A DNA stretch of 45,253 nucleotides from Candidatus Portnoybacteria bacterium RBG_13_40_8 (GCA_001819435.1 MHMT01000012.1:1-45253), one strand, 5' to 3'. Shown: positions 12,001-31,952, counted from the first letter of the stretch. Translations and numbers: made by a program. The notes: generated from the sequence alone by a model not told the origin.

Positions 12001-14990
12001 GTATAGGAGATACGGTTCCTGGATACAAACTCTCTGTCGACGGCACTGCCTCAATCTCCGGAGGATTATATTTGAGCGACGCATATAATAATGTACTTCT
12101 CGGACCCGCTAATATTGGCACTACCTCCACTGGTTCTTATAATATATTGATAGGAAATTCTGTTGGCTCAAATGCGGATGATTTAGATTATTCTACTTTT
12201 ATCGGGTCATCCTGGACTGGTCAATATGCGGGAAATTCTGATCAAAGTGTTTTTATGGGATATTTTACGGGCACCTATGCTTCAGATTCTGGTGGTAGTG
12301 TTTTTATGGGAACCAGCGCAGGCGCGTATGCTGAAGATTCTGATTGGAGTATCTTTATTGGTAATAATGCAGGCCTTTTTGCTTCAATGTCGACATACAG
12401 CACAATATTGGGTGCTGGCGCAGGTGTATGGATTGGTGATGCTGATTACAATACTTATCTCGGCGGTTATGCGGGTCAATACGCTGGCGAAGGCGATAAT
12501 AATGTGTATGTGGGATACGGAGCAGGCCAAAATGCTTCCGGCAGCGCCAATGTATTTTTAGGTTATCTGGCTGGTCGCGATGAAACCGGTTCCAACCTTT
12601 TGTATATCGAAAACTCTGCTGGCACCACACCTCTAATCTACGGCGATTTCTCATCAAATTATGTTTCCATTTCCGATAATCTATATATCTCCAACAATCT
12701 CTTTGTTGACGGCACAGCTTCCATATCCATAGCTTCAATATCTCAATATGCAATTTTTGGTGATATTGCTACTCCATCATCACCAGGTCTGGGCATGGTC
12801 TTCCATGATACCGGAGATAATGAATTATTATATTATGACGGCACTGGATGGCAGAATCTGGCAAGTCCCAGCGCCAGCGGATTATCCGGCGGTTTACAAA
12901 ATTATATCGGTATCTGGAATGGCACGGACAGCATGACTTACGATACTGAATTCTACTGGGATACTACCAACAACTGGCTGGGTATCGGCGATATTACTCC
13001 TGATGCAATGTTGGACGTCAATGGCGGCGCTTCAATATCAGAGGATTTCTCGGTTGGCGATTCCTTATTCTATGTCAATGTTGGCTCTTCTTCCGTGGAT
13101 ATAGGTGCTGCCGGTTCAGATGTATATATCGGTACAGAAGGAGATACCTCCACAATCAATTTGATTATTGAAGGCACTGGTAATCTTGGTATCGGCGATA
13201 CTACTCCCGACTGGAGATTATCGGTTGACGGCACGGCTTCTGTTTCCGGCAATGCATATTTCCCGAATACGCCCAACGTTACTGATTTAAGAACCGATGG
13301 CAGCGGTATGTTATATGACGCTTCTGACATGCGCTTAAAGAAAAATATTACTGATATCGATAATGCTTTAAGTAAATTGATGTCTTTGCGCGGCGTGACC
13401 TACAATTGGAAAACCCTGGAAGAAGGCAATGACTACATTACTATGGACGGTACGATAATGCATATGGGCTTTATTGCTCAGGAAGTAGCGAGCAGTTCTG
13501 TCTCCGAATTAGCCTATAGCCATACAAGATCTGGCCAGGAAATCTGGGCAGTGAGAGAAGGTGAAATGACGGCTTTACTAGTTGAAGCAATCAAAGAAAT
13601 GAACAGTATTATTGATTTATCCGATGCCCCGATTGATTCTGCTTCTTTAACCATCAGTCAATTGGGTAATGTCGGCATCGGCGGTACTGCCTCTATCTCC
13701 GGAGATTTGTATGTTGGTGGTTTAGCCACCGAATCAGCCGCGTTTGTCTATGTTGATACCGAGGGCAAATTACACGCCGGCGATGCTTATCAGGATTTGG
13801 CCGAATTTATGCCTTTGGCTTCTCAAAGTTTTGAAGCCGGTGATGTAATCACTTCCCGACTGGCCACTGACGAGGAAAAAGCCAATGGATTGACTACTGA
13901 ACCGTTTATCGGAGTAAAATCATCTACTTCTTATGACCAGAATTTATTGGGAGTAGTTTCTTATTCCGATATTCCGGCTTTGGGAACCAAACTGAACAAT
14001 AACTACTTGCCGATTTCTTTGGCTGGTCGTGTGCCGGTTAAAGTTTCCACTCAAAATGGAGCAATTAAGGAAGGCGATTATCTTACATCTTCTACTATTC
14101 CGGGTGTAGCCATGAAAGCCACTAATGCCGGTCCTGTTATCGGCAAAGCGCTTGAACCATATGCAAATCCTGACCCAGCAGTTGTGGGCAGAATTTTAAT
14201 GTTCGTGAATTCAACCTGGTACGGTGGCAAATCATCAGAAATTGTGATTAATCCTGACGGAACGGTTGATGACAAAGTGACAGTTGAATCCGGAGATTTC
14301 TTTGGGAACCTGACTGCGAGCTTAAGACAATTGGGCGTGGATATTGCCGATGGTGTGATTAAAGCCACTAAACTGGTAGTTAATGAAGTTAAAACCAAAG
14401 TATTAAGAATCTCGGTTGAAAAAGATAAAGATGCTACTGTTGGCACAGCCATAATCCCAGCCCAGCAGATTGAATTCAGGGTAGAAAATAGTTTGGTGGA
14501 GGCCAATTCCAAGATATTTATAACCTTTACCGCTGATACAGGTGGCAGAACCTGGCACATTTCGGAAAAAGTTGCCGGAAACGGGTTTACAATTCGCTTA
14601 AGCGATGTCACGCCCGAAGAATTGAGTTTTGATTATTGGATAGTTCTTGTCGAAGGACAAGATCGCGGATCTACGCAGATTGACCCTGCTTCGCAGGATA
14701 CGCAGACAGACGCAGAGCCCTACTGTGGGGATGGGATACTTTATGCGGGTGAGGAATGTGATGACGGAAATTTGATTGATGGAGATGGATGCGATGCAAC
14801 TTGCATGACAGAAGTTGTGAGTGAAGAGCCATCTTCACCTTCTGGCGAAAATGAAGAGCAAGCGCCGGTTGAGGAAACTACGCCACCAATTGAAGAAATC
14901 ACACCGCCAGTGGAGGAAATTGTCGCACCGACAGAAGAAACAACTCCGTCATCTGAACAAGGCACATCGACAGAAGAAACAGTAATTTAA
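3..14990 (+). CDS. Giant repetitive surface/adhesin-like protein, 5'-truncated; six arrays of 17-aa G-x-x-A-G-x-Y-A repeats, VGIG(T/D)xxP repeats, Peptidase_S74-like chaperone motif, Cys-rich repeat, acidic Pro/Glu tail
   Basis: Frame is open from nt 3, so the true start is probably upstream of the window; SDMRLKKNITDI at 13323 matches the S74 'SDxRLK' motif; GRVPVKVS...GDYLTSS..PGVAMKA block; CGDG...EECDDGN...GDGCDATC at ~14724-14805 resembles the Myxococcus Cys-rich repeat. Confidence 0.85.
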   Translation, partial: EVGTGLFYVNTGSSSVQFGGTSTTSFVGPVSISEDLDVGSGQLFVDNSSGFVGIGSVSLAADAILTVRQQADSQGIKIFGYDDGDTRYGHMYMDSNNDFYIRTDTTSTHIIFSAGGSNTLMMDGDGDFQVGQSSYMARLINSQSGGTPVFSFSSDEDTGIGQMGPAVADFDADTLSLRGGGIALMQLGEYGNLPFVGIGTAATTSYTFAVDGTASISDDFYVGDNLLTLDVSEASVSSTGKWKLTTTETTGEGFYIDASSVTTGNGLLIEVDGTAMTSGKALQITRDGASMFNIGEWGDIYAAGQFSGSYLTMTSTTASYFTGPLGIGTTTPSTELSIVGTASISEDLWASGAFQFGGGELEATQSYSRLGGNDTGHGLDNAYDLLISGMLEVDGMTYFDGGTTFGSTASVTSDFSVGDSLFYVNVGTQSYQFGGTGTASFAGDIDMEGDLNVGNNDLYIDSSTGYVGIGTGASMSAKFNVAGTSTDNAYFFYNNADVGDTTNGQSLYVYRRAAEGDEYLRMYVDDSAEAIIETSMANLKFNTGGATIENWGPVNIGTNWYGSGVNYFITQYGYITAASTQKYIQWQVSDTTDTFNLTRQDDYIVGFNIGMPTSISDNLDVDGIVSISDGLYVDTFTSISDDLSVASSGYTIGDDYGPTLYIDTVNDYVGIGTTAPTTKLYIRGTDPEITLYESATGAIMSIQQGQAFGIVGPESASDLSLQTGGGSKIYIQHSGSYVGIGTYYPSVELSILGTASISQDLWASGAFQFGGGEITATASYSRLGLNNTGHGLDNAYDLLISGMLEVDGMTYFDGGTTFGSTASITGDFSVGDSLFYVNVGTQSYQFGGTGTASFVGPVNISQDLNVSEGDLFVDDSTGYVGIGTTNPLKKLSVSGNISGTQFDDYEDSSYYINPSAGDVSILVAGNVGIGTKSPDSLLDVAGQIIASSSYFTGLTQLTHASVSDDLELMGVASISASSVLFRPETNSTTFLQMASAAFVAGDDYPIFNVDTQNGRVGIGTAAPDSKLTISGSGTQNLRIISTDYNDAGVILQRGTYGTDAYSDWFIYDSGGTLKLDSYQSSSQNTRMTILTTGEVGIGDTAPGYTLSVDGTASISDNFYFGNDMLWSNRTGDLMMSSSSWIFGGDETTNSFTFEGIASLSGYLDFGALATPSTGLAAGRVFRYEDDNSLWYYNGSDWLDLTETGAGATGIPGGSGNEFQYRINGTTFGGAASLVYGGATSILSSASWDISGTNWNLDAIASISGGLYLSDAYNNVLIGPSTVGTTSTGSYNIFMGDAAGTYADEVSYGTFIGQNAGQSAINADYSFFAGWNAGQYASNSSDSFMVGRTAGQYAEDSYNSIFIGNWAGRYASQSTYSVMIGEQVGDYADDVDYSVFLGTNTGQYAGNSDNSIFIGNSAGQYASESGYSVFTGVYAGQYAENSYNSIFAGNWAGRYASQSIYSIMIGEQVGDYADDVDNVVFLGRLAGQYAADADNSIFMGQEAGQHASESQYSVFMGRDAGQYAKDSQYSVFIGDWSGQYASGSSFTFMSGQSAGADAADADNSIFMGQDSGAYAGYLDESIFMGHLAGTYASESSYSYFIGGAAGQYASISNNSVMVGYGAGQYFGTDNSADGRVTFIGDNAGNSAIDSDYSVMIGPGAGQYASESGGSVFIGSQTGDYAQNSDDSVFIGDWTGRYASLSTETVLVGPYAGDYAGDVDYGVFMGTGAGGYAINSDNSTFVGPWAGQSASESVSSVFIGIGAGQYAEDSDNSVFMGNGTGSYASLSTGTTMIGGAAGYYTGDADYNTYLGGYAGQYAGEGDNNTYIGYQAGENASGSSNVFIGFDAGSDETGSNLLYIENSAGTTPLIYGDFTNNYVSISNDLYTAGNLYTNGTASISGALTVDGTATSSFAGTIHIFKAESGIEANEYSDDFIIEANGDAGMSILTPDSSAGFINFGSPGGDVGAFLEYSYNSDNFGIGTNETGGRLIFYTDYYIEAMRIDANGDVGIGDTDPTYKLSVDGTASISDNFYFGNDMLWSNRTGDLMMSSSSWIFGGDATTNSFTFEGIASLSGYLDWGAIATPSAYAGRMFYSEENNSMWVYSGGWLEWGGGGGGGADSDWTINVNDMYSAVSGNVGIGDSVPDYKLSVDGTASISGGLYLSDAYFNTLIGPAVGTTSTNSFNIFMGDSPGQYADSVEYANFIGFYAGQYGINSDYSVFMGYWAGRYASDSYSSVFIGDAPGAYAEDSDYSVFIGTVAGLYASLSRESIFIGPEAGRYAGNADYNVYLGSEAGTYAGEGDQNVYLGYQAGRNASGSYNVFLGNQAGFNETGNDKLYIENSSGATPLIYGDFSSNYVSISTNLFTDNFYTSYASISSYAEFGQAATPSAPATGQLFHDTDNLLYYYDGTAWLNLTSTSAGGTIDGIGTENYITLWDDSDSLTNSILFQSGTSEILVSGSATFDGTASFSGDTTIGNNLFFADISEASISVAGAIEATGMILGNNIKTDTDLANLYLGTGIGSTTTSSYNIFIGDFTGAEADGASGSTFIGRQAGRYAVNTDTAVFIGGYAGQYASESNYSTFLGYQAGRYAEFSNGSTFVGQYAGYIASQSPNSNLLGNYAGADADNIDEVVFNGYMAGRFAGDSGYSTFIGSHAGEYASDSIDATFIGYAAGQYAEDSDWATFVGYNAGQYASLTLGSVMLGPGAGQYVGNADYDVYLGDSAGRYAGEGVNNVYIGYRAGEYASGSGNVFIGFDAGSDETGSNLLYIDNSNITTPLIYGDFSSNYVSISNDLYTAGNLYINGTASISDDFYVGNDSLFFDLSADTFYSSSSWGIGGTGLAFNLDATASISGDLTVTGDDVLFQPYTNGTDSFIIASSGWASGDDYGPLFNVNTTAASISMNGDLAVFKDFNVASGAIQHDYSSGITYIDSLNMGALSFDTDAGVVSWVDMPVATTAASIIESYTAQLDGNPMITVYGLTDGSGGVTSLGVGIGDTAPSYMLSVDGTASISDNFYFGNDMLWSNKTGDLMMSSSSWIFGGDATTNSFTFEGIASLSGYLDFGALATPTTGLAAGRVFHYEDDNSLWYYNGSDWLDLTETGAGATGIPGGSGNEFQYRVDATTFGGAASLVYGSATSILSSASWDISGTNWNLDAIASISGGLYLSDAYYNTLIGPADVGTTSTGSYNIFMGYRAGQYADEVGSANFIGYQAGRYAINADSSVFIGINAGMYASDSEDGVILGQQAGMYAEDSDKSVFIGSNAGQYASLSLDSVMIGEEAGRYTGNADNNTYLGSFAGLYAGEGDNNVYVGYDAGMNASGSANVFLGYLAGRDETGSNLLYIENYYDGTAWLNLTSTSAGGTIDGIGTENYITLWDDTDSLTNSIIYQSGTSEILVSGSATFDGYASISGDLTVTGDDVLFRPLVDGADTFTISSSGFVAGDDYAIFSVDTQNIAVGIGTTAPNALLHLKSIAPQIMFTDSDDGGDEFTQYLNGGILLVGYNNTDSVYNIAIGSDNLVGIRDVTPDYGLEVVASSADGYLAVSSDDDEAKNANIFLIDENGYVGIGDTDPIYKLSVDGTASISGGLYLSDAYYNTLIGPTTVGTTSTGSYDIFMGDAAGQYADSVEYANFIGVEAGQYGINSDYSIFIGGLAGKFASDSRQSIFIGGQAVGLYAENSDDSIMIGGYGAGMYASLSSYSLMIGTDAGQYAGNADYNTYLGAHSGQYAGEGDNNVYLGFQAGQNASGSSNVFIGYDVGSDETGSNLLYIENSAGTTPLIYGDFSSNYVSISSSLFTDNFYTSYASISSYAEFGQAATPSAPATGQLFHDTDNLLYYYDGSAWLNLASTSAGGTIDGTGTENYITLWDDSDSLTNSILYQSGTSEILVSGSATFDGLVSLSDEFTVASGMDIGGGDLYVDAYDGKVGIGTIGPISKLEVENANTGDNLYGLYVDQNEPDAYAIHTYADGGWGLRVQSALNTGTSYLLDIENSDGSILAVTAEGNVGIGDTVPGYKLSVDGTASISGGLYLSDAYNNVLLGPANIGTTSTGSYNILIGNSVGSNADDLDYSTFIGSSWTGQYAGNSDQSVFMGYFTGTYASDSGGSVFMGTSAGAYAEDSDWSIFIGNNAGLFASMSTYSTILGAGAGVWIGDADYNTYLGGYAGQYAGEGDNNVYVGYGAGQNASGSANVFLGYLAGRDETGSNLLYIENSAGTTPLIYGDFSSNYVSISDNLYISNNLFVDGTASISIASISQYAIFGDIATPSSPGLGMVFHDTGDNELLYYDGTGWQNLASPSASGLSGGLQNYIGIWNGTDSMTYDTEFYWDTTNNWLGIGDITPDAMLDVNGGASISEDFSVGDSLFYVNVGSSSVDIGAAGSDVYIGTEGDTSTINLIIEGTGNLGIGDTTPDWRLSVDGTASVSGNAYFPNTPNVTDLRTDGSGMLYDASDMRLKKNITDIDNALSKLMSLRGVTYNWKTLEEGNDYITMDGTIMHMGFIAQEVASSSVSELAYSHTRSGQEIWAVREGEMTALLVEAIKEMNSIIDLSDAPIDSASLTISQLGNVGIGGTASISGDLYVGGLATESAAFVYVDTEGKLHAGDAYQDLAEFMPLASQSFEAGDVITSRLATDEEKANGLTTEPFIGVKSSTSYDQNLLGVVSYSDIPALGTKLNNNYLPISLAGRVPVKVSTQNGAIKEGDYLTSSTIPGVAMKATNAGPVIGKALEPYANPDPAVVGRILMFVNSTWYGGKSSEIVINPDGTVDDKVTVESGDFFGNLTASLRQLGVDIADGVIKATKLVVNEVKTKVLRISVEKDKDATVGTAIIPAQQIEFRVENSLVEANSKIFITFTADTGGRTWHISEKVAGNGFTIRLSDVTPEELSFDYWIVLVEGQDRGSTQIDPASQDTQTDAEPYCGDGILYAGEECDDGNLIDGDGCDATCMTEVVSEEPSSPSGENEEQAPVEETTPPIEEITPPVEEIVAPTEETTPSSEQGTSTEETVI
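14664..14716 (+). repeat. ACGCAGAT-decamer element with central GC hairpin, in frame in the giant gene (copy 1)
   Basis: CGCGGAT-CTACGCAGATTGA-C-CCTGC TTC GCAGG-ATACGCAGAC-AGACGCAGA; matches copies at 19746 and 25562. Confidence 0.8.
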
Positions 14991-15142
14991 TTCTCAATTT
15001 CGAATTCTGAATTTCGAATCAATTTTAAATGACTTAAATTCGAAACCCCAAGCAGTACAGCAGAGCTGACTACGGGGCAGGCAGTTTCAAAATTCAGAAA
15101 TTCTGTAATTCAATCAAAATTCAAAATTAAAAATTCAAAATT
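14989..15142. repeat. Heptamer palindromic element E1 with a GC-rich hairpin as central cargo
   Basis: Left arm AATTCTC AATTTCG AATTCTG AATTTCG AATC AATTTTA AATGACTT AAATTCG; centre 15046-15084; right arm ends CAAAATT CAAAATT AAAAATT CAAAATT. Confidence 0.85.
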
Positions 15143-15148
15143 ATAACC

Positions 15149-15763
15149 GTGTCTAAAAAACTAATCCTCATTATTATCATAATCATTGTGCTTTCTGGCG
15201 CGATATATTTCGTTTTCTTAAATAAAAATTCCCTTCAAAGCGGGCAAGTATCCAATGGTATCAATGAATATCAACAAGTATCCGGCAACGAACAAACTTT
15301 CAAGATTACTCCAAGCGATAATAAAGAAAACAGTATTTATACCGACTCGCAATATAGATTTTCCTTTGAATATCCCAAAGATTTTACAGTAACAAAATTT
15401 CAGGAAGGGGAGGACGGTGATACAATATTGGTTCAGTATCGTGAGCAAAGCGAGCAAGTATCAACAAGTATCAATAAGTATCCGGATGGTAGTAGTTTCC
15501 AGATTTTTATTTCCCCTTTTGACGAGCCGGGACCATTGACCAAAGAAAGAATATTACAGGATTTGCCTGATTTAATCATAAAAAATCCCGAGCAAAGAGT
15601 TTTGAAAAACGGCGCCGTGGCTCTTGTCTTTTTCAGCGAAGAGCAGTCACTCGGCGAAACCAGAGAAATATGGTTTATTCATAATAATCACCTTTACCAG
15701 ATTACAACGAATAAGGAATTGGATGGATTGGTGGCAAAAATTCTTGAAACCTGGCGGTTTTAG
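15149..15763 (+). CDS. Membrane-anchored PsbP-like protein
   Basis: N-terminal hydrophobic anchor; YTDSQYRFSFEYPKDF start and 'ILETWRF' end resemble PsbP-related proteins. Confidence 0.6.
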   Translation: MSKKLILIIIIIIVLSGAIYFVFLNKNSLQSGQVSNGINEYQQVSGNEQTFKITPSDNKENSIYTDSQYRFSFEYPKDFTVTKFQEGEDGDTILVQYREQSEQVSTSINKYPDGSSFQIFISPFDEPGPLTKERILQDLPDLIIKNPEQRVLKNGAVALVFFSEEQSLGETREIWFIHNNHLYQITTNKELDGLVAKILETWRF

Positions 15764-15765
15764 TG

Positions 15766-16243
15766 AAATTCGAATTTAGAATTTTGAATTTCGAATCAAT
15801 TTAAAATGATTTAATTATTCAAACTTTATGACCATGAATAAAAATAATTACGATTTAGAAGAAAGAACCGCGAAATTCGGAGAAGATATTATTGAATTTT
15901 GTAAATCTATAAATCAAGACGCTATTACTAAACCGATTATTAGCCAATTGATTCGTTCGGGAACGAGCGTAGGAGCTAATTATATGGAAGCTAACGCCGC
16001 TGCTTCTAAAAAGGATTTCAAAAACAAAATATTTATTTGCAAGAAAGAATCTCAAGAGACCAAGCACTGGTTAAGAATGATGGCGAAATCTAATCCGGAA
16101 AAAACAGAAGAAATACGTAAGTTATGGAAAGAATGCCAGGAATTAACTCTAATTTTCGGAAAAATCGTTTCGTCATTAAGAAAGTAATTTGAAATTAGGT
16201 TATTCGAATTTGAATCAAAATTCAAAATTAAAAATTCAAAATT
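15766..16243. mobile_element. Putative gene-carrying element E2: heptamer left arm (15766-15824), 4HB gene, right arm (16188-16243)
   Basis: Arms are imperfect inverted repeats of each other and closely match the arms of E1, E3 and E4; mobility is inferred, not shown. Confidence 0.55.
15828..16187 (+). CDS. Four helix bundle protein (23S rRNA IVP / Avd-like family)
   Basis: DLEERT..F, QLIRSGTSVGANYMEA, SKKDF..K..I..KE..ET.HWL motifs. Confidence 0.9.
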   Translation: MTMNKNNYDLEERTAKFGEDIIEFCKSINQDAITKPIISQLIRSGTSVGANYMEANAAASKKDFKNKIFICKKESQETKHWLRMMAKSNPEKTEEIRKLWKECQELTLIFGKIVSSLRK

Positions 16244-16266
16244 AAGCCCAGCATTTATTAAGCCGA

Positions 16267-16389
16267 AAATTCGAATTTCGAATTTCGAATCAATTTTAAA
16301 TGAATTAATTTCAAATTAAAAATTAGTCGTGTTTCAAAATTAAAAAATTAGATAATTCAATCAAAATTCAAAATTAAAAATTAGAAATT
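16267..16389. repeat. Heptamer palindromic element E3 (empty)
   Basis: AAATTCG AATTTCG AATTTCG AATC AATTTTA AATGAATT AATTTCA, short TAAAAATTAGTCGT centre, right arm as in E1. Confidence 0.85.
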
Positions 16390-16399
16390 AAAGCCAAGT

Positions 16400-18499
16400 A
16401 TGAAAAAGTTTTTATATTTCATCATATTCACGTTTGGACTGCTAATAGCCCAGAATGCTTTTGCTAGCATAATTTTACGTCCCGTTTTTCATACTGGTCT
16501 TGTTGGCTATTGGTCTTTTCAGGAAGGCGCGGGAAATAATGTTTATGACAAAAGCGGAAAAGGAAATACCGGCACCTGGAACGGAACAGGAACCTCTCAC
16601 TGGGCAGACGGAAAAATCGGCAAAGGGGGAAGCTTTAACGGGACAGATGATTATGTTGCACTTTCTAATTCTTCGGATTATAAACCCACAAGCAGAGTAA
16701 CTATTTCAGCTTGGTTTAAAGCAGATGACTGGGATTCGAGTTTTGTAATTACAGGCATTAGTGTTGCCAACATGCATTTTTATATTGCTGAGGGCGGTGG
16801 TTATGAACATCCCACCATATATCTTACCTTTGCTGGCGCAGGCGCTCAGATGGCGCAATGGGCAAACCAAAGCTTAAATGTCGGACAGTGGTATCATATT
16901 GCCGGAGTATATGATGGTAATGATTTAATCCTTTATTTTGACGGTGTAGCCAGGAAAGTAACCAATATTGGCGTTGATACGATTAGCCAGCCAGCATCAA
17001 CTATGCTTATAGGTAGATTAGGAGCTGATTATTCCAATGGATTGATCGACGAAGTACGGATTTATAACCGCGCCTTGGATGAAAGCGAAATTTCCCGGCT
17101 TTATAAATTATCCCAGCCGAAAATATCAACTGTCGCCATGAATAATGGCTTGGTCGGCTACTGGGATTTTCAGGAAGGCGCGGGAAATAATGTTTATGAC
17201 AAAAGCGGTTATGACAATGACGGCATCTGGAACGGCACTGGTTCTCACTGGGCAGACGGCAAAATCGGCAAAGGGGGAAGTTTTAATGGGACCGATGATT
17301 ATGTTTATGTCACTGAACCTACAGGAGAATTAAACCTTGTAAATAACTTTACTTTAAGCGCCTGGATTAAGCCGGAAGATTCTTCGGGCACCAGGGCTAT
17401 TGTGGGCAGGTATTACCAATACGTCTTGTGGATTGAAAATGATAACACGCTTTCCGCCATAATTCGTAACTCGTCCGGCGATTATGAATATCCTACCAGC
17501 GGAACCGCCGTAACCGAAGGTGTATGGAGCCACGTTGCTATAACTTTCTCCGATAGCGTGGTCACTTTTTATATTAATGGAGTAAAAATCATAACAGACT
17601 CTATTGCTACTTCACAGATATTTTCAGACACGAATTATTATATGCATTTCGGAATTTATAGCAGTCTAGTCAGTCTGCGTTTTCCCGGAATCATCGATGA
17701 AATTAGGGCTTATAACCGTGTCTTAAGCGAAGGTGAGATGAGCCGGCTTTATAAATTATCCCAGCCGAAAATCAATGCTTCGCAAAACAACCAACTCACC
17801 AATGGCTTGGTCGGTCTTTGGTCATTTAATGGTTCTGATATTGATGGTAATGAGGCCTATGACCGCAGTGGTCAAGGAAATACCGGCACCATTGTGGGTG
17901 CAACAAAAACTATCGGCAAAGTGGGGCAAGCCATGGAATTCAACGGCACCAGCGATTATATCGCAATTACCGACGATTCGATTTTCGATTTAAACGCCAG
18001 CAACAGCTATTCCTGGTCATTCTGGATAAAACCGCAAAATTTAACCAATCCTAATACTATATGGTCTCAGGACCTCGGAATTGACGATGACACATATGTT
18101 CTTATCTATGCGGGCAGTTTTGATGTTGAGCGGTGGGGACCCGTAACCAATGGCATAGGAGCAGGATGGGTAAATCAAGGCAGTTCGGGCGGTGAACAAT
18201 TAATAGTTGAGACCAATAATAATGTTCTTACCTTAAATACTTGGCATCATGTTGTGATTACCTATACTTATTCGACAAACGCCCTAACCAGATTTAAGAT
18301 TTATGTTGATGGCGCTGATAAGACAACGGGGGCAGAGCAGGGAGGAACATCTATTGAAAATATTAGTCCTGCATATACTAGAATTGGTTCGAATCAACAA
18401 TACGGCGAATATTTCGACGGTATGATTGATGAAGCACGTTTCTACAACCGCGCACTGACAGCGCAAGAGGTGTTGAGATTATACAATATGGGACACTAA
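16400..18499 (+). CDS. Secreted protein with three LamG/concanavalin A-like domains
   Basis: Signal peptide ending AFA; three GLVG(Y/L)W.F ... W.H ... IDE.R.YNR.L units; the starts of domains 1 and 2 are near-identical in DNA (~16496-16655 vs ~17146-17302). Confidence 0.9.
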   Translation: MKKFLYFIIFTFGLLIAQNAFASIILRPVFHTGLVGYWSFQEGAGNNVYDKSGKGNTGTWNGTGTSHWADGKIGKGGSFNGTDDYVALSNSSDYKPTSRVTISAWFKADDWDSSFVITGISVANMHFYIAEGGGYEHPTIYLTFAGAGAQMAQWANQSLNVGQWYHIAGVYDGNDLILYFDGVARKVTNIGVDTISQPASTMLIGRLGADYSNGLIDEVRIYNRALDESEISRLYKLSQPKISTVAMNNGLVGYWDFQEGAGNNVYDKSGYDNDGIWNGTGSHWADGKIGKGGSFNGTDDYVYVTEPTGELNLVNNFTLSAWIKPEDSSGTRAIVGRYYQYVLWIENDNTLSAIIRNSSGDYEYPTSGTAVTEGVWSHVAITFSDSVVTFYINGVKIITDSIATSQIFSDTNYYMHFGIYSSLVSLRFPGIIDEIRAYNRVLSEGEMSRLYKLSQPKINASQNNQLTNGLVGLWSFNGSDIDGNEAYDRSGQGNTGTIVGATKTIGKVGQAMEFNGTSDYIAITDDSIFDLNASNSYSWSFWIKPQNLTNPNTIWSQDLGIDDDTYVLIYAGSFDVERWGPVTNGIGAGWVNQGSSGGEQLIVETNNNVLTLNTWHHVVITYTYSTNALTRFKIYVDGADKTTGAEQGGTSIENISPAYTRIGSNQQYGEYFDGMIDEARFYNRALTAQEVLRLYNMGH

Positions 18500-18629
18500 A
18501 ATTTCGAATTCTGAATTTCGAATTTCGAACCAAATTCGAATGAATTAATTTCAAATTAAAAAATAGTCGTGTTTCAAAATTAAGTAATTCTGTAATTCAT
18601 TCAAAATTAAAAATTTAAAATTCAAAATT
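18500..18629. repeat. Heptamer palindromic element E4 (empty)
   Basis: Nearly the same arms and TAAAAAATAGTCGT centre as E3. Confidence 0.85.
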
Positions 18630-23101: not shown

Positions 23102-23277
23102 ATTGACCTAATTGCTCTAATTGACCCAATCTAGAGAATTAACCTAATTATTCTAATTGACCTAATTAACCTAATCAAATCCCAAATCCCAATAACTAAA
23201 TCCCAAATTTAGACATTAGGCATTTAGGCATTGGGCATTGATTAGAATAATTAGAAATTAGGTTAATTAGAAATTTT
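23101..23277. repeat. Palindromic element E5 with 9-nt outer and 7-nt inner units
   Basis: Eight AATTGACCT-like 9-mers, AATC, AAATCCC-like 7-mers; right arm has AGGCATT-like units, GATT, AGAATAATT/AGGTTAATT. Confidence 0.85.
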
Positions 23278-23325
23278 AAAACAAGTAGTTTTTGCTGTTT
23301 GTTTTTTTATTTTGACTTTTTGTTA

Positions 23326-23334: not shown

Positions 23335-23340
23335 GTGTTT

Positions 23341-24737
23341 ATGCTAGCAAAACTGGAAAAATATTTATTCTACGCCTTTCTTTTTTTAATTCCCCTGCAA
23401 TTGCGAGCGACGATTTCTTGGCAGGGGAGCGAGTGGGATTCTGTTTTTTTATATTTAACCGATTTATTATTAATCGGCTTTTTATTTTTCGCGATTATCA
23501 ATAAAAGAATATCGTTCAGAAAAAGCGGTATTCTTTTATATTTATTTTTGGGACTTGCTTTAATCTCCATATTTGTTAGTTCGGATAAAGGGGTTAGTGT
23601 TTATCGCTTTATAAAATTACTGGAATTCGTAGCTCTATACATATATATGTGTAGTCAATTCAAAATTCAAAATTCAAAATTCAGACAATTTTATCTGTTA
23701 TTTTGTATTCGGCTGTTTTCCAGGCAATTTTAGCCATTGTCCAGTTTTTTAAACAATCGAGTTTGGGTTTGAAATTTATTGAAGCCGGTCAATATCTACC
23801 TGGCGCGCCGGGAGTGGCTACTTTTATTTCCGGCAACGAGAAAATTATGCGTGCCTACGGCTCTTTTTCTCATCCCAATGTCTTGGCCGTATTTTTGTTG
23901 TTGGCTATTTTTTGTTTTTATTATTTATGGATTAAAGGATTCAATGGTCCCCGGTCCCCGGTTACTAGTTACTTGTTACCGGTTACTAGTTACTTATTAC
24001 TGGTCTTTGGATTATTTTTGACTTTTTCCCGCGGAGCAATTCTGGTTTTTCTGTTTATTAGTTTTACATTTCTCTTAACCAGATTTTTTCAGTTGCGGCA
24101 ATTATATCATACCGAAGAAAGATTGCTCGCCGGGAAAAAATTGATGATTTTAGCTTCATTTTTCGTGTTTTTTTCTTTAATCAGTGGTTTGATTGTCCTG
24201 CCCTACTTTAAAACCCGCTTTACGAAAATTTCTCTTGAAGAAGAAGCGATTGACCTCCGATTTTTTTACAATAAAATGGCTCTGTCTATGATAAAAGACA
24301 AGCCGTTTTTGGGAATCGGTATCGGTAATTTCGTTAATTTTTCCCGTAATTATCCGGCATTTTTAAGAGCAGCCGCCAAACTTGCCGCTTCCGGCGGTTT
24401 GACCGGTGGACAGGTTCCCGAATGGATTTATCAGCCAACCCACAATCTTTATTTATTGATTGCTTCGGAAATCGGAATTTTGGGCGCGTTAATCTTTTTA
24501 ATATTTTTATTTAAGAAATTTACTTACGGGGTTGGCCAGATTTTTAAAAATCTCAACGAAATCAATCCTTTGTTTTTTCTTTTTATCGGATTTTTGATTC
24601 TTGCCTTAAGCGACCATCTTTTCTGGACCCTACAGTCGGGAGGAATAATATTTTGGCTATCTTTAGCGTTATTAGAAAATCCAAACTATTTCAAAATCCA
24701 AACTATTTCAAAACAAATCCAAAATCCAAATGTTTAA
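23341..24737 (+). pseudogene. O-antigen ligase (Wzy_C) family membrane protein split by a frameshift at a (CAAAATT)3 tract; possibly phase-variable or an assembly artefact
   Basis: ORFs 23335-23733 and 23703-24737 form one multi-TM protein with RAYGSFSHPN, TFSRGA, PFLGIGIGNF and HNLYL..ASEIG motifs. Confidence 0.75.
23947..24002 (+). repeat. In-frame heptamer tract (GTCCCCG)2 plus (GTTACTA-like)6
   Basis: Encodes GPRSPVTSYLLPVTSYLL. Confidence 0.85.
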
Positions 24738-24799
24738 AAATTCAATCATTTGAAATTGATTTGGAATAATTTGAGCTTTGAGATAATTTGAAATAATTT
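24677..24799. repeat. Palindromic element E6 overlapping the ligase 3' end
   Basis: (AAATCCA AACTATTTCA)x2 AAAC AAATCCA AAATCCA, with a complementary-type right arm TTTGGAATAATTTG...GAGATAATTTGAAATAATTTT. Confidence 0.75.
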
Positions 24800-26155
24800 A
24801 TGCAATATATTTGCGATTTTCACATTCACTCCAAATACTCCCGCGCTACTTCTAAAGAAACAAATATTGAGAATCTGAACAAATGGGCGCGCATCAAGGG
24901 CGTTGATGTTTTGGGAAGCGGAGATTTTACCCATCCACTTTGGCTGAAAGAATTGAAAGAAAAGCTGATTCCAGCCGAAAAAGGGCTTTTCCGTTATAAA
25001 GATAAAAAAATAAAAAATAATCATAATGGATTTTTGATTAACGGAAACAATCATCAGCCGGAGACGAGATTTATTCTGACTACCGAGATTTCCAGTATTT
25101 ATTCCAAGGGAGGGAAAACCAGAAAAATTCACAATATAATTTTTGCTCCTAATTTTGAGGCAGTGGAAAAAATTAACACCCATCTGGGATGGATTGGTAA
25201 TTTAAAATCCGATGGTCGGCCGATTCTGGGATTGGATGCCAAAGAATTGGCAAAAATTGTTCTGAATATTTCCGAAGATTGCTTGATTATTCCTGCCCAT
25301 GCTTGGACGCCCTGGTTTTCTATTTTCGGTTCATTTTCCGGATTTGACTCGATTGAAGAGTGCTTCGAAGAATATACAAAATATATTTATGCTATTGAAA
25401 CCGGATTATCAAGCGATCCGGAAATGAATTGGCAGTTAAGTAAATTGGATAATATTACCTTAATTTCTAATTCCGATGCTCACAGTCCCGCTAAAATTGG
25501 CCGCGAGGCCAATATTTTTGAAGGCGAGAAAATAGATTATAATTTAATTGCTAACGCAATTAAACGCAGATCCACGCAGATTGAACCCCGACAAGTCGGG
25601 GATACGCAGATAAACGCAGAAAAAGAGTTACGATTGGTTAAAACCCTTGAGTTTTTTCCCGAAGAGGGAAAATATCATTGGGATGGCCATCGGAATTGCG
25701 GAATTGTTTTCAGCCCCGATGAATCGTTTAAATACAATAATGTTTGCCCGCGCTGCGGAAAACCATTAACCATCGGAGTAATGAACCGAGTCCGCCAGCT
25801 GGCTGACCGGCAAATAGGCGAAAAACCAATAAATGCCATTCCTTTTCAAAGACTGATTCCTCTGGAAGAGATAATTGCCGATGTAATTGGCATTGGTGTA
25901 GGCACTAAAGGAGTTAATGAACATTATAAAAACTTGATTAAGGTTTTTGGCAACGAATTCAAGATTTTATTGGAAGTCAGAAAAGAACAAATTGCCTCTG
26001 TCAGTTTGCCGGAGATTGCCGAAGGCATAGACAAGGTAAGACAGGGCAAAATTTCAGTATCCCCCGGTTATGATGGAGAATATGGGAAAATCAGTATTTT
26101 TGGCGATAACGAAGAAAGACCAAAAACCATCGGCAGCCAAGAAACCCTTTTTTGA
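24800..26155 (+). CDS. Endonuclease Q family / PHP-domain protein (related to the N-terminal domain of some UvrD proteins)
   Basis: DFHIHSKYSRATS, AHAWTPWFS, ETGLSSD, SNSDAHS, GKYHWDGHR.C, CPRCG, PGYDGEYG. Confidence 0.85.
   Translation: MQYICDFHIHSKYSRATSKETNIENLNKWARIKGVDVLGSGDFTHPLWLKELKEKLIPAEKGLFRYKDKKIKNNHNGFLINGNNHQPETRFILTTEISSIYSKGGKTRKIHNIIFAPNFEAVEKINTHLGWIGNLKSDGRPILGLDAKELAKIVLNISEDCLIIPAHAWTPWFSIFGSFSGFDSIEECFEEYTKYIYAIETGLSSDPEMNWQLSKLDNITLISNSDAHSPAKIGREANIFEGEKIDYNLIANAIKRRSTQIEPRQVGDTQINAEKELRLVKTLEFFPEEGKYHWDGHRNCGIVFSPDESFKYNNVCPRCGKPLTIGVMNRVRQLADRQIGEKPINAIPFQRLIPLEEIIADVIGIGVGTKGVNEHYKNLIKVFGNEFKILLEVRKEQIASVSLPEIAEGIDKVRQGKISVSPGYDGEYGKISIFGDNEERPKTIGSQETLF
25562..25620 (+). 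repeat. ACGCAGAT-decamer element (copy 3), in frame
   Basis: AAACGCAGAT CCACGCAGATTGA-A-CCCCGAC AA GTCGGGG-ATACGCAGAT AAACGCAGA. Confidence 0.85.
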
Positions 26156-26158
26156 ATT

Positions 26159-26248
26159 AATCTCTAATCTCAAAATCCTAATTTCTAAACAATCTCAAAT
26201 ATCAAAATTCAAAAATTTTAGAGATTAGAGATTAGAAATTAGAGATTT
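26159..26248. repeat. Heptamer palindromic element E7 (AATCTCT type)
   Basis: AATCTCT AATCTCA AAATCCT AATTTCT AAAC AATCTCA...; right arm (AGAGATT)n. Confidence 0.8.
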
Positions 26249-26258
26249 AAATTATTTT

Positions 26259-27982: not shown

Positions 27983-29719
27983 ATGGATAATAAAGAGATA
28001 GCGAAAATTTTATATGAAATTTCGGAATATTTGTCTATGGAAGATGTGCCGTTTAAGCCAAGGGCTTATGAAAGAGCAGCCATGGCTATTGAAGAATTGG
28101 AGAATAGAGTAGAAGATATTTATAAAAAAGAAGGACTGGAGGGATTAATAAATATACCGACTGTCGGCAAGGGCATTGCCGAGAGGATTAAAGAACTGAT
28201 AAGGACCGGTAAAATCAGATATTACGAACAATTAAAGAAGAAAACCCCGGTTAAAGTTGATGAACTTACGGCTGTGGAAGGGGTCGGTCCAAAGATAATC
28301 AAGAGATTATACAAAGAAATTGGCGTAAAGAATTTAATCGATTTGGAAAAAGCGGCTATGGCCGGAAAAATCAGAAAACTGGAAGGCTTTGGTCAAAAAA
28401 GCGAGGAGAATATTTTAAGAGGAATAAATTTTCTCAAGAGTAGCGGTGGTCGTTTTGTTTTGGGGTTTATAATGCCGGAAGTAAGAGAGATTGAAAAAAG
28501 AATTGGTGATTTTCCTGGCGTTAAAAAAGCAATTATTGCCGGTTCAATCAGAAGAATGAAAGAAACAATCGGTGATGGCGATTTATTGGTTACCGTTTCT
28601 TCTCCGCGGGCAGGACAAAAGATAATGGAGATTTTCGTGAATATGCCTGAAGTAATGCACGTTTATAGTCAAGGACCGACAAAATCTTCGGTAAGACTGA
28701 AAAATGGTATGGATTTTGACCTTCGGGTTGTGCCGGAAGAAAGTTTTGGCGCAGCTTTGCAGTATTTTACCGGCAGCAAAGACCATAATATTGAATTAAG
28801 AAAAATTGCCATTAAAAAAGGATTAAAACTTAATGAATATGGAGTGTTTCGGGGTAAAAAAATGATTGTCGGCAAAAACGAAGAGGAGGTTTATAAAATT
28901 TTGGGCTTAAAATGGATGGAGCCGGAATTGAGAGAGAATGCAGGAGAAATCGAAGCTGCGCAAAATAATAGATTGCCGAAAATAATCGGCTATAACGACC
29001 TCCAAGGGGACTTGCAAATTCAGACAAATTGGACCGATGGCTCAAATTCCATTGAGGATTATGTTGAAGAAGCAATAAAATTGGGCTTGGAATATATTCT
29101 GATTACCGACCACACCAAAAGCCTGGCAATGACTCATGGATTGGATGAAAGAGGGTTGGCGAGACAGGGAAGGGAAATAGATAAAATAAATTCAAAGCTC
29201 AAAGCTCAAAACTCAAAACTTAGGGTGTTGAAGGGAGCCGAGGTTAATATTTTAAAGGATGGTCGACTGGATATCAAAGACGATACTTTACATAAATTAG
29301 ACGTAGTGGCTATTGCTGTTCATTCGGGATTTAAAATGTCCAAACGCGATATTACCGAAAGAATTATTAAAGCGATGAAAAATCCTCATACTGATATTTT
29401 GTTTCATCCCACGGGCAGGTTAATCAATCAAAGACCACCATATGAAGTGGATGTGGAAAAAATAATCAGAGTAGCCAAAGAAACTAAAACAGTCTTGGAA
29501 GTTAACGCTTATCCGAATAGGTTGGATTTAAAAGACGAATACGCGCGCATGGCTAAGAATATGGGTGTGAAATTATCCATTGACTCGGACGCTCACCACG
29601 TTTCGCATCTTCATTTTTTGGAATTCGGCATTGCTCAGGCTCGTAGAGGATGGGTGGAGAAAAAGGATGTGATAAATGCCTGGCCAGTAGAAAAAATGTT
29701 AAAAATGCTGAAACATTAA
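27983..29719 (+). CDS. polX: DNA polymerase/3'-5' exonuclease PolX with PHP domain
   Basis: AGSIRR.KETIGD.D, ALQYFTGSK.HN, ITDH, HPTGR, SDAH motifs. Confidence 0.93.
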   Translation: MDNKEIAKILYEISEYLSMEDVPFKPRAYERAAMAIEELENRVEDIYKKEGLEGLINIPTVGKGIAERIKELIRTGKIRYYEQLKKKTPVKVDELTAVEGVGPKIIKRLYKEIGVKNLIDLEKAAMAGKIRKLEGFGQKSEENILRGINFLKSSGGRFVLGFIMPEVREIEKRIGDFPGVKKAIIAGSIRRMKETIGDGDLLVTVSSPRAGQKIMEIFVNMPEVMHVYSQGPTKSSVRLKNGMDFDLRVVPEESFGAALQYFTGSKDHNIELRKIAIKKGLKLNEYGVFRGKKMIVGKNEEEVYKILGLKWMEPELRENAGEIEAAQNNRLPKIIGYNDLQGDLQIQTNWTDGSNSIEDYVEEAIKLGLEYILITDHTKSLAMTHGLDERGLARQGREIDKINSKLKAQNSKLRVLKGAEVNILKDGRLDIKDDTLHKLDVVAIAVHSGFKMSKRDITERIIKAMKNPHTDILFHPTGRLINQRPPYEVDVEKIIRVAKETKTVLEVNAYPNRLDLKDEYARMAKNMGVKLSIDSDAHHVSHLHFLEFGIAQARRGWVEKKDVINAWPVEKMLKMLKH

Positions 29720-29842
29720 AATCTCTAATCTCGAAATTCCAATCTCTAAACAATCTCAAATACCAAAAAACCAAAACACTTTTGAATTTTGAAATTTGAG
29801 ATTTGAACTTATTTAGAAATTAGAGATTAGGATTTAGAAATT
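29720..29842. repeat. Heptamer palindromic element E8 (AATCTCT type)
   Basis: Left arm nearly identical to E7; complete complementary right arm ending TTAGAAATTAGAGATTAGGATTTAGAAATT. Confidence 0.85.
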
Positions 29843-30633: not shown

Positions 30634-31045
30634 ATTCGATTACGAATTACTGGAAACCTACGAAGCCGGTTTGGTTCTTCGGGGATTTGAGGTGAAAGCA
30701 ATAAAAACCGGCCATGTTAATTTATTGGGCTCTTATGTCGTAGGTAGGGAGAGCGAATTTTATTTAATAAATGCTTTTATTCCGTCTTATCAGCCGTCAA
30801 ATACTCCGGAAGATTACGACCCCTATAGAAGCAGAAAACTGTTATTAAAAAAAAACGAGATTAATTCTTTAATCGGGAAAGGCAAGACAAAAGGATTGAC
30901 ATTAATTCCAATAAAGATATATACTAAAAAATCCAGGATAAAACTGGAATTTGCCGTCGGAAAAGGCAAGAGAAAGATTGATAAGAGGGAGATAATAAAA
31001 AAGCGCGACATGGAACGAGAGGCTGGACGTCGTTTTAAAAATTAG
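30602..31045 (+). CDS. smpB: SsrA-binding protein SmpB
   Basis: N.RA.FDY...ETYEAGLVL.G.EVKAI, R.RKLLL.K.EI, GKGK...DKRE. Confidence 0.96.
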   Translation: MKILAENKRAKFDYELLETYEAGLVLRGFEVKAIKTGHVNLLGSYVVGRESEFYLINAFIPSYQPSNTPEDYDPYRSRKLLLKKNEINSLIGKGKTKGLTLIPIKIYTKKSRIKLEFAVGKGKRKIDKREIIKKRDMEREAGRRFKN

Positions 31046-31097
31046 AATTTTGAATTTAGAATTTGTTTAGAAATTAGAAATTAGAAATTAGAAATTT
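31039..31097. repeat. Solo right arm of the heptamer element (E9)
   Basis: GAATTTT GAATTTA GAATTT GTTT (AGAAATT)4, similar to the E8 right arm. Confidence 0.75.
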
Positions 31098-31116
31098 CAT
31101 TGTGAAGCAATGGTAA

Positions 31117-31475
31117 GGGGGTGAAGGGTTTCGACAGAAAGTACTTTTAAAATAAGCAAGTCGAGGATGTCAGTTAGCTCGTAAAAATCTGGCAAAATAT
31201 AAGTGCAGTAAATTTTGCACCCGCTGTAGCTTAATACCTATAGCAATCTTAATCACCAACTCTCAATAGGTGATTAAGGTTTCATAGTTCCTCATTTGAG
31301 GTATTGAGATAAGTGTTTTAGTCTGTCCAAGCTAAAAGACTGATAAAAATTGGACTAGATTATTTGGATTTTTGTCTGTTTTATATTCATATAATCGAAT
31401 TCAATAAACAGAATATGCTTGTAGATTTATTTTAAAAAAACTTTTTGGATAGGAGTTCAACTCTCCTCACCTCCA
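31117..31475 (+). ncRNA. ssrA: tmRNA; predicted tag peptide (A)AVNFAPAVA
   Basis: 5' GGGGGTG...GGTTTCGAC; 3' AGGAG-TTCAACT-CTCCT T-arm and CACCTCC-A acceptor strand with G3.U; tag frame 31205-31234; adjacent to smpB. Confidence 0.93.
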
Positions 31476-31476
31476 C

Positions 31477-31604
31477 ATAAATTTTTCGCTTCGCTCAAAA
31501 TTTGAGTATTTAGTATTTTGTAGTTTGTATTTTGGGCGAGTGAACTATTTTTAAAAAAGCGAAAAATTTATCCCTAATTACAAATTACACACACTAATTA
31601 CAAA
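31477..31604. repeat. Nested inverted repeats between ssrA and the 4HB gene
   Basis: 15-bp perfect IR 31477-31491/31557-31571; 31501-31536 is imperfectly complementary to the AATTACA units at 31572-31604. Confidence 0.75.
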
Positions 31605-31952
31605 ATGTTTGATTTCGAAAATCTTGACGTTTATCAAAAATCAAAAGAACTGAACAAAGAAATTCTTAAATTCCTTAAAGAAAATAAATATATCGATTCC
31701 TATTTGAAAGACCAGCTTCGTCGGGCATCAATAAGTATAGTTATTAATATTGCCGAAGGAAGTGGTAAATATTCTAAAGCGGACAAAAAGAATTTTTATA
31801 CAACTGCGCGAGGGTCAGTATACGAATGTGTTTCATTATTTGAGATAATTTTAGAAGAGAATCAAATTACCAAAGAAAATTTTGATAGTTTTTACCAAAA
31901 ATACGAAATTATTTCCAAAATGTTATTGGGATTGATAAATAGTCAAAGATAG
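31605..31952 (+). CDS. Four helix bundle protein (23S rRNA IVP / Avd-like family), second subfamily
   Basis: FENLDVYQKS, DQLRRASISI..NIAEG.G, F...ARGS..EC. Confidence 0.92.
   Translation: MFDFENLDVYQKSKELNKEILKFLKENKYIDSYLKDQLRRASISIVINIAEGSGKYSKADKKNFYTTARGSVYECVSLFEIILEENQITKENFDSFYQKYEIISKMLLGLINSQR

Follow-up and report, generated by a model that had tools for sequence, protein, structure and literature searches.

A PF05635 four-helix-bundle gene framed by inverted heptamer arrays, with gene-less copies at operon junctions, in Candidatus Portnoybacteria bacterium RBG_13_40_8

Open reading frames (ORFs) of the four-helix-bundle (4HB) family PF05635, also called S23p, are known from intervening sequences (IVS) of bacterial 23S rRNA; here we describe a gene of the same family that lies among protein-coding genes, in a 45,253-nt stretch of DNA (the window) from Candidatus Portnoybacteria bacterium RBG_13_40_8. 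In the ORF-bearing IVS, according to those sections of PMC4990558 that deal with them, the S23p ORF occupies the loop of a 28-bp terminal inverted-repeat stem, three tandem heptamers precede the ATG, and RNase III cuts the element out. The same sections state that heptamer copy number differs among Coxiella strains, that ORF-bearing IVS are considered selfish and possibly once mobile, and that ORF-less versions exist. ORFs of the 23S_rRNA_IVP family also reside in 16S and 23S insertions of the candidate phyla radiation (CPR), as described in part of PMC11270868. For Xanthomonas and Nostoc, heptameric repeats close to stop codons, either single or in inverted pairs, have been reported (PMC4692102, main text), where GGGNATC heptamers are interpreted as G-quadruplex formers and where, within that main text, neither "four-helix" nor "Xcc0516" appears. 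In addition, an excerpt of PMC10053308 names PF05635 as the family most often located beside the reverse transcriptases (RTs) of diversity-generating retroelements (DGRs), and notes its resemblance to Avd.

Although structures have been solved for the very large PF05635/TIGR02436 family, only within DGRs has a function been assigned to it. Dispersed repeats of other kinds also bear comparison with the elements described below. In systems of repetitive extragenic palindromes (REPs) and their paired hairpin-forming derivatives (REPINs), the gene for a REP-associated tyrosine transposase (RAYT) has on either side inverted copies of a repeat that is spread through the intergenic regions of the genome in question; RAYT is a Y1 (HUH) transposase, and different RAYT paralogs pair with different repeat families. 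Rickettsia palindromic elements and MITEs (miniature inverted-repeat transposable elements) are short palindromes without a transposase of their own, which occur between genes, near stable RNAs and in frame within coding sequences. The heptamers of cyanobacteria are called short tandemly repeated repetitive (STRR) sequences.

The window corresponds to contig C12 in a genome of 690 kb and 33 contigs with a G+C content of ~37%, which is rated 100% complete by marker genes. A repeat search found the 4HB ORF at 15828-16187 to be enclosed by an inverted pair, 15766-15816 and 16193-16243 (51 nt, 76% complementary), in agreement with an earlier sequence-only note on this DNA (the original prediction), which had described the gene as bracketed by imperfect inverted arms. 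The left arm is made up of AATTTCG-type units followed by AATCAATTTTAAATGA and terminates 2 nt short of the start codon, and the right arm reads ...GAATC AAAATTC AAAATTA AAAATTC AAAATT; both features noted above for the ORF-bearing IVS, a terminal inverted-repeat stem around the ORF and tandem heptamers before its start, are therefore present in this cassette. Each arm occurs in four copies in the window (left arm, 58 nt, 72-100% identity to the reference copy; right arm, 77 nt, 64-100%), and searches with a right-arm 23-mer at 3 or fewer mismatches and with a left-arm 24-mer gave 9 and 3 matches, vs 0.01 and 0.00 expected, respectively. The full cassette and three gene-less copies (e1, e2 and e3 in Table 1) align over the whole of both arms, as far as the start codon on one side and beginning at the stop codon on the other. 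They differ in their centers alone, each of which is the 360-nt ORF, a GC-rich hairpin of 37 nt or TTAAAAA(T/A)TAGTCGTG. The joined-arm copies lie where the original prediction had placed them, with the gene replaced by a GC hairpin or a short spacer, and its suggestion that full and empty copies are related is upheld by homology through the whole arms; on these alignments, the copies are evidently homologous elements.

We scored the flanks of genes by how well ~110-120 nt of upstream sequence could at best pair, in inverted orientation, with a like length downstream, with gene calls in the analysis scripts that were crude longest-ORF calls. Among the 670 own-genome genes that were scored (47 of 717 had short flanks or Ns and were left out), the 4HB gene of the window ranked first, with a score of 57 against a 99th percentile of 37.6, and the second rank fell to a 4HB gene of the same subfamily on contig C10, with a score of 51.

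Comparison with G005, a genome from the same family and another genus whose contig C19 is syntenic with window positions 1-30254, showed that these elements are insertions. Eight syntenic genes have protein identities of 35-63% between the two genomes, and window palindromes of 158, 636, 62, 103 and 121 nt correspond to G005 junctions of 3, 14, -17, -1 and -4 nt, the 3-nt gap being that at the site of e1. The succession of palindrome, 1488-aa gene and palindrome in the window is represented in G005 by a 5-nt junction, and at the site of the 24715-24799 palindrome the G005 genes overlap. Window elements start directly behind a stop codon and end 0-10 nt ahead of the next start; e1, for example, occupies the whole gap from the stop codon of a 4994-aa gene to the GTG of a 204-aa gene. 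No (AAATTNN)x4 array was found anywhere in G005, in which only two PF05635-like matches occur, both under the cut-off. Since the G005 junctions are tight or overlapping at all element sites, the window elements represent insertions at stop/start junctions of co-directional genes, and the element-free state that the original prediction envisaged at orthologous sites does exist: all six G005 junctions measure 14 nt or less, or overlap. In this comparison, no clear target-site duplication was seen at the element-gene junctions. The glycine-rich 1488-aa ORF (18635-23101), for its part, is without counterpart on the syntenic G005 contig, and the palindromes on its two sides belong to different unit families.

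The arrangement is not peculiar to this genome. From a scan of GTDB representatives with the window 4HB subfamily, we took the best 80 of 582 relatives, and observed that 66 of 76 scorable 4HB genes had flank scores of at least 30 vs 31 of 267 neighboring genes, some of which contact cassette arms themselves (medians, 50 vs 19). Among 41 genomes of the same class, 26 contain PF05635, and of the 24 genes whose flanks were long enough (4 of 28 were left out), 14 scored above 30, vs none of 60 neighbor genes. When all PF05635 subfamilies of five unrelated genomes were considered, 18 of 26 genes scored at least 30 (two fragment rows were left out, and five loci are shared with the GTDB set), with arm units such as GCCATTA, TCGGGTA, TAACTGA and AAAAGCAG. 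4HB genes are thus flanked by arms far more often than neighbor genes, as the original prediction had anticipated. The best 80 relatives include many CPR groups as well as metagenome-assembled genomes (MAGs) labelled Saccharibacteria, Gammaproteobacteria, Bdellovibrionales, Nitrospirae, Desulfobacteraceae, Dehalococcoidia, Phycisphaeraceae, Cloacimonadota and Zixibacteria. Of the 60 loci with co-directional neighbors, 58 have the 4HB gene in sense and 2 have it antisense (p = 3e-15), and the median gaps around it, 54 and 70 nt, are filled by the arms; the elements lie in sense and leave no space for a separate promoter.

The periodicity of the arms is evident from identity at a lag of 7 nt, which was 0.49 in the upstream 60 nt and 0.53 in the downstream 60 nt, vs 0.25 in a control stretch. 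When loci were anchored on the start codon, the units fell into register, with the ATG belonging to the last unit (...CAATG) and the stop codon opening the 3' arm, so that the loop is exactly the ORF. The usual 5' arm has four units, a break of the form AAT(C/A/G)AAT, and one or two further units. Heptamer arrays also surround all three 4HB genes examined on cyanobacterial plasmids of Nostoc and Anabaena. Inverted arms bracket the gene on Nostoc punctiforme pNPUN01 (L145), where they are (GTCGGAG)n arrays, and on a Nostoc sp. plasmid (L147); on an Anabaena cylindrica plasmid (L146), AAAAGTA arrays occur in both orientations on either side of the gene. Two loci depart from the usual form. L023 (G039:C15) has about three tandem copies of the 3' arm downstream of the 4HB gene, and in L018 (G003) the arms are small GC hairpins separated by GAAAT(A/T)A, not plain heptamers.

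Gene and arms are inherited together. 4HB proteins 75-80% identical to that of the window are found at quite different junctions, namely trigger factor (tig)/clpP, T2SS-F/pilin-like and cupredoxin-like/unknown, and protein identity is correlated with 5'-arm similarity (Mantel r = 0.28, a value reached by 0 of 500 permutations), which is the kind of covariation that the original prediction had proposed to test for. These observations show co-inheritance at unrelated junctions in different lineages. Also, the window palindrome at 23102-23290 matches with its two halves the 5' and 3' arms of the cassette carried by a MAG labelled Saccharibacteria (L088; also those of L028), and the alignment with L088 extends to where the L088 ORF begins and ends.

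Particular array families accompany particular 4HB genes. In a set of five genomes, the unit type TAACNNA had 32 matches, in G042 only, and TCGGGNN, GCCNTTA and AAAAGCAG had 179, 106 and 23 matches, respectively, in G041 only. The four unit types come each from the arms of a separate 4HB gene in the genome concerned, and each gave 0-1 matches in the other four genomes and 0 matches with reversed-pattern controls; many of the arrays are inverted pairs 30-70 nt apart, that is, gene-less palindromes. Within these five genomes, therefore, the four arm-unit types each form an array family only in the genome with the matching 4HB gene, and all 4 show the inverted flanking copies and the one-family-per-paralog pairing that mark the dispersed repeats of REPIN-RAYT systems. 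Across the 41 relatives of the same class, (AAATTNN)x4 had 542 matches vs 41 for the reversed control, the median being 17 among the 25 genomes that have PF05635 and 1 among the 16 that lack it, G005 counting as one of the latter since its matches fall short of the cut-off (Mann-Whitney U test, p = 4e-5; Spearman 0.65; related genomes are not independent).

The 4HB protein of the window matches PF05635 with 60.2 bits (cut-off, 33.8) and TIGR02436 with 79.9 bits (cut-off, 24). RxxxSxxxNxxE is a conserved motif of the family, as given in a section of PMC3936711, and it is present in the window protein as R43-S47-N51-E54 (QLIRSGTSVGANYMEAN); residues Q40, N51, E54 and E77 are invariant among 26 sequences. 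The closest solved relative is PDB 2rld (E 1.4e-12), an entry with 5 chains, and the protein Xcc0516 is a pentamer, as cited in the pertinent part of PMC4990558. The ratio of nonsynonymous to synonymous substitution rates (dN/dS) had a median of 0.11 and a range of 0.05-0.19 in the 12 pairs with unsaturated dS among 57 pairs at least 70% identical, and stops are present in 3 of 77 ORFs; the 4HB ORF is under purifying selection. In-frame stops were seen in L016 and L026. Phages gave just 2 weak matches (31-40% identity), and in a PADLOC scan for defense genes the window 4HB was without a match and the second 4HB gene of the window gave only a weak one, to typeIV_Cas11 (E 0.0045).

The features of the window are collected in Table 1, which includes palindromes and arrays of other unit families.

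Table 1. Positions of cassette parts, gene-less palindromes and heptamer arrays in the window
Feature	Position	Strand	Remarks
5' arm, full cassette	15764..15827	+	four ~7-nt units AAATTCG AATTTAG AATTTTG AATTTCG, then AATCAATTTAAAATGA..., reaching ATG
PF05635/TIGR02436 four-helix-bundle gene, 119 aa, pI 9.3	15828..16187	+	loop of element
3' arm, full cassette	16186..16243	+	begins within stop codon: AATTTGAAATTAGGTTATTCGAATTTGAATC AAAATTC AAAATTA AAAATTC AAAATT
Gene-less copy e1	14989..15146	+	left arm, 37-nt GC-rich hairpin center 15047-15083, right arm
Gene-less copy e2	16267..16389	+	center TTAAAAATTAGTCGTG; ends 10 nt before LamG-gene ATG; 88% identical to e3
Gene-less copy e3	18500..18629	+	directly after LamG stop; ends 5 nt before GTG of 1488-aa gene
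Gene-less palindrome, other unit family (TAATTGACC / TAATTAACC ...)	23102..23290	+	intergenic scan: 23137-23268
Palindrome (CAAATCCAAAATCCAAATG ... CATTTGAAATTGATTTGGA...)	~24715..24799	+	left arm = end of upstream ORF
Gene-less palindrome, AATCTCT / AGAGATT units	26153..26254	+	
Gene-less palindrome, AATCTCT / AGAGATT units	29720..29842	+	
Single (AAAATTC)n array within coding sequence	23656..23685	+	gene changes frame here
Single in-frame heptamer array in ORF 41980-43257	42572..42604	+	peptide RIQNLKLKIQNS
In-frame array, AAAGCTC/AAAACTC units, in gene 27983-29719	29188..29222	+	
Inverted array pair (..AGAATTT.. / AATTAGA x4) between a gene and transfer-messenger RNA (tmRNA) gene	31039..31101	+	
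Second 4HB gene 31605-31952 (PF05635 97.8 bits) with upstream repeats	31477..31952	+	directly after tmRNA (31117-31476)

An intergenic palindrome scan by dynamic programming, covering 329 of 340 regions in the genome (11 were excluded as longer than 700 nt or containing N), found 71 palindromes with scores of at least 30 (8.4 in shuffles) and 16 with scores of at least 40 (0.4 in shuffles); the highest-scoring ones with periodic units lie mostly in the window. The (AAATTNN)x4 pattern forms 27 arrays in this genome, of which 8 are intergenic and paired, all in the window, and 3 are intergenic and single. Another 10 are single arrays in long ORFs, where in 10 of 10 cases the sense strand is the stop-free A-rich strand, and they encode peptides such as IQNSKFKIQNS. 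In one ORF, C6:17348-18511 (-), heptamer arrays lie in frame at three separate places (17491, 17820 and 18030). The LamG gene between e2 and e3 has a 699-aa product with three Laminin_G_3 stretches. In the gene at 23335-24737, the single 434-aa ORF of G005 aligns to frame +1 until 23665 and to frame +3 from ~23600, and the frame change lies inside the (AAAATTC)n array; the gene is possibly phase-variable, possibly broken, or possibly the product of an assembly slip.

The genome contains four PF05635 genes. One of them, C10:10003-10404, lies between AAATCCT-type arms. Two others, the second 4HB gene of the window and C17:135-446, come after a tmRNA or tRNA gene, with both arms upstream; in the case of the former, a palindrome and an outer inverted repeat both lie there. 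A 4HB subfamily situated directly behind tRNA or tmRNA genes can be recognized (window 31477-31604; L002, 459-583; L017), in which the outer inverted repeat (ATAAATTTTTCGCTT...AAGCGAAAAATTTAT) is interleaved with the heptamer arms in a pseudoknot-like order and shows paired changes between copies, TTTTTCGC/GCGAAAAA vs TTTCCGC/GCGGAAA. Two MITE-like families were also found in this genome, ~143 nt in length, with 23-nt terminal inverted repeats (ATGCCCGGTGCTACAACTTTGAT... / ATGCCCCGTACTGAATTTTCGAC...) and a small GC hairpin inside. They are present at gene boundaries in at least 8 and at least 5 copies, the first for example at C10:11937-12080, C13:18411-18556, C19:4978-5121, C15:2568-2710 and C4:15134-15275, and the second at C11:4048-4189, C30:14216-14354 and C19:17067-17207. 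A Phage_integrase (Xer-type) match is lacking from this genome although it is rated 100% complete.

Because the window elements share the anatomy of the IVS yet lie at mRNA junctions, we read them as probable IVS-type selfish cassettes outside rRNA, in which a PF05635 ORF is framed from start to stop by inverted arrays of ~7-nt units, and of which the ORF-less copies and single arrays would be derivatives. Such a cassette would be transcribed together with the host operon, and its arms could pair as an imperfect duplex of 50-60 bp, which would set the upstream stop codon beside the downstream start codon again. The stem may then be cleaved by RNase III, as in the 23S rRNA IVS; an RNase III gene is encoded in the genome (C33:3803-4195). 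With stop/start adjacency restored by the stem and with RNase III cutting, the burden of an insertion on the host would be small. The basic 4HB protein may bind cognate heptamer arrays and aid the persistence or spread of the family, and might serve gene-less copies in trans; binding of each 4HB protein to its own arrays is suggested by the pattern of one family per paralog, taken with the basic and probably oligomeric nature of the protein. A helical bundle of 119 aa is not, to our knowledge, a known catalytic fold. It is conceivable, though on present evidence doubtful, that PF05635 proteins bind heptamer arrays in a sequence-specific manner and bring about the copying of their cognate array family, as a mobile system without a transposase or RT, in the manner of RAYT and REPIN. 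If so, the rRNA IVS and the 4HB paralogs wedged in operons, those of cas operons included, would form one class that crosses phyla, and the same class would take in the heptamer excess of Xanthomonas (GGGNATC) and of cyanobacteria, together with the in-frame arrays within coding sequences.

The palindromes might instead be intercistronic RNA elements that serve the host, as processing or stability hairpins of operon mRNA, with the 4HB gene a passenger that landed in their loops; RNase III sites in the early mRNA of phage T7 and REP-like 3' stabilizers are precedents. Consistent with this idea, the palindromes fill stop-to-start gaps between co-directional genes, RNase III is encoded, and the window palindromes have folding z-scores of -2 to -6 on one or both strands. 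Yet they are missing at all six orthologous G005 junctions and are therefore dispensable, neighboring junctions carry different unit sequences, and identical units occur in frame within genes. Moreover, searches for intrinsic terminators found none in the four elements (3 sites in the region vs 3.7 expected, all elsewhere), and there was no match to a known RNA family in Rfam at E up to 1; promoters, likewise, were not in excess (15 vs 12.0 expected). The exact framing of 66 of 76 4HB genes, with arm type tracking protein type, is also unlike what a chance passenger would show, and we regard a host function of this kind as unlikely. Another view is that the heptamers are simple sequence repeats (SSRs) born of polymerase slippage, which would arise in place and have their arms matched by gene conversion, without mobility and with the 4HB gene incidental. 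Over-representation of heptameric SSRs and a slippage hypothesis are both cited in the main text of PMC4692102, Coxiella IVS differ in heptamer number by strain (PMC4990558, in the section cited above), and the frameshift of the gene at 23335-24737 falls in a heptamer run. A further point in its favor is the array in the gene at 27983-29719, which replaces a similar K/N-rich stretch, the G005 ortholog being only 3 aa shorter. Slippage in place would not, however, account for the ~55-60 nt of non-periodic detail shared by the four window copies (AATCAATTTTAAATGA... and the inner flanks), for a palindrome (23102-23290) that fits both arms of a cassette from another lineage, for cassettes with 75-80% identical proteins at unrelated junctions, or for the inverted pairing and exact framing of one protein family, and as a general explanation it seems to us quite improbable.

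An operator is a third kind of interpretation: by binding to the arms, the 4HB protein would regulate the translation of its own gene or of the neighboring ones, with nothing selfish involved. The position of the start codon within the last unit, with the stem closing on the start, would suit such a role, as would the basic protein and the presence of a matching 4HB gene for each array family tested. On the other hand, families of dozens to ~180 matches, scattered over the genome and within coding sequences, exceed the need of one autoregulated gene, and the elements are missing at orthologous sites; autoregulation is in our judgment very unlikely to be what the arms are for. A remnant of a DGR, in which the 4HB protein would be an Avd working with an RT and the repeats a template and target, was rejected as a candidate and is extremely improbable: PF05635 is commonest beside DGR RTs and Avd-like (excerpt of PMC10053308), but this genome, rated 100% complete, has no RVT_1 match, no pair of template and variable repeats was found, and the arms are inverted, not direct.

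Several observations weigh against the cassette interpretation that we prefer, or against parts of it. Over 66 loci, the arm pairs totalled 3213, comprising 2619 Watson-Crick, 140 G.T, 143 C.A and 311 other pairs; since G.T and C.A are equal in the arms, there is no sign of selection for pairing in the sense RNA. Within the window, C.A exceeds G.T on the + strand in five palindromes (8:1, 5:1, 6:1, 5:3 and 4:2), and the antisense strand folds better than the sense strand; antisense RNA structure as a general signal was itself dropped because of the near-equal totals over the 66 loci. None of the runs on record that hold the window stretch is an RNA run. Logan contigs of DNA runs do contain joints across elements (15799 to 16355, 15102 to 18599 and 23122 to 23256, with sides of 21-29 nt and other letters between; 21-36 nt for joints over elements overall), which most likely represent other arm copies or other organisms, not excision. 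As to the means of movement, the original prediction recognized no RT, transposase or integrase in the window, and this holds for the whole genome with respect to RVT_1, Y1_Tnp (PF01797), DDE_Tnp_1 and Phage_integrase, other transposase families not having been searched. The pairing of array families with 4HB genes is qualified by the derivation of the unit patterns from the very genomes in which they were then counted, and by arrays in relatives where no PF05635 was found (28 in G011, 15 in G027 and 13 in G004). Framing of the gene is not universal either: in L001, L002 and L017 both arms lie upstream. On the Anabaena cylindrica and Nostoc sp. plasmids (L146, L147) the 4HB gene is located between cas1 and cas2, on the opposite strand. 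Finally, the array in the gene at 27983-29719 appears, from its alignment with G005, to fit local slippage or conversion better than insertion.

The interpretation has consequences for how the family is annotated. PF05635 members have repeatedly been called "associated" with a host operon, for example cas, and 23S_rRNA_IVP genes occur wedged within cas operons (PMC3936711, in the section concerned). If 4HB genes are the cargo of hairpin cassettes, such associations would be insertions and not functional links, and 4HB insertions together with CRISPR-repeat-like arrays may explain the published "CRISPR association" of 23S_rRNA_IVP. The same reading, if correct, would give a general answer to the 30-year-old question of what rRNA IVS are, would supply a candidate cause for the over-representation of heptameric repeats in bacterial genomes, and would amount to a means of placing a gene within an operon without burdening the host much. 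The pairing of protein with repeat would then be directly testable, for one 5.5-Mb Phycisphaeraceae genome has three paralogs and three array families (TCGGGNN, GCCNTTA and AAAAGCAG).

The elements described here resemble the 23S IVS of the Leptospira, Coxiella, Brucella and Xanthomonas type in having a PF05635 ORF in an inverted-repeat loop with heptamers before the start, in the sense orientation of the ORF relative to the host transcript (IVS) or operon (window), and in the existence of ORF-less forms. They differ in lying between protein-coding genes, not in rRNA helices (25 or 45), the genome's own 23S gene being uninterrupted (2958 nt vs a 2925-position model, with no large insertion); in their longer arms, about 55-60 nt with 4-6 units; in the several gene-less copies and in-frame single arrays that accompany the full copy; and in an ORF under purifying selection, unlike the Coxiella IVS ORF, which is reported to be decaying and probably untranslated. 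With REPIN-RAYT they have in common a single gene flanked by inverted copies of a genome-dispersed repeat, with a family for each paralog, but here the flanked gene is a 4HB gene in a genome without Y1_Tnp, and the repeats take the form of heptamers in tandem, whereas REP units are single palindromes. Like Rickettsia palindromic elements and MITEs, they are short transposase-less palindromes found in intergenic positions, next to genes of stable RNAs and in frame within coding sequences; unlike these, they have arms that are periodic arrays and, in the full copies, a conserved protein gene in the loop, with no clear target-site duplication. The fold and family are homologous to those of Avd, although Avd belongs with a DGR RT and template/variable repeats, none of which is present in this genome. 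The inverted (GTCGGAG)n arrays that bracket the 4HB gene of the Nostoc punctiforme plasmid recall the GGGNATC heptamers of Xanthomonas and Nostoc. Hence, of the original prediction's idea of an element with full and empty forms, the homology of those copies, the absent state and the association of arms with 4HB genes stand; its claim to a wholly undescribed system does not, since both the 23S IVS (PMC4990558) and the heptamers near stop codons (PMC4692102) are, in the portions cited, already in print. Our literature search, whose coverage leaves out most subscription journals and supplements, yielded no paper that ties non-rRNA PF05635 genes to flanking inverted heptamer arrays. The pieces, then, have been published: the rRNA IVS with S23p and heptamers, the Xanthomonas and Nostoc repeats, and IVP genes in cas operons. 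What our search did not find in print is the synthesis, in which PF05635 genes are generally the loop cargo of inverted heptamer arrays, inserted in sense at operon junctions, each with an array family of its own.

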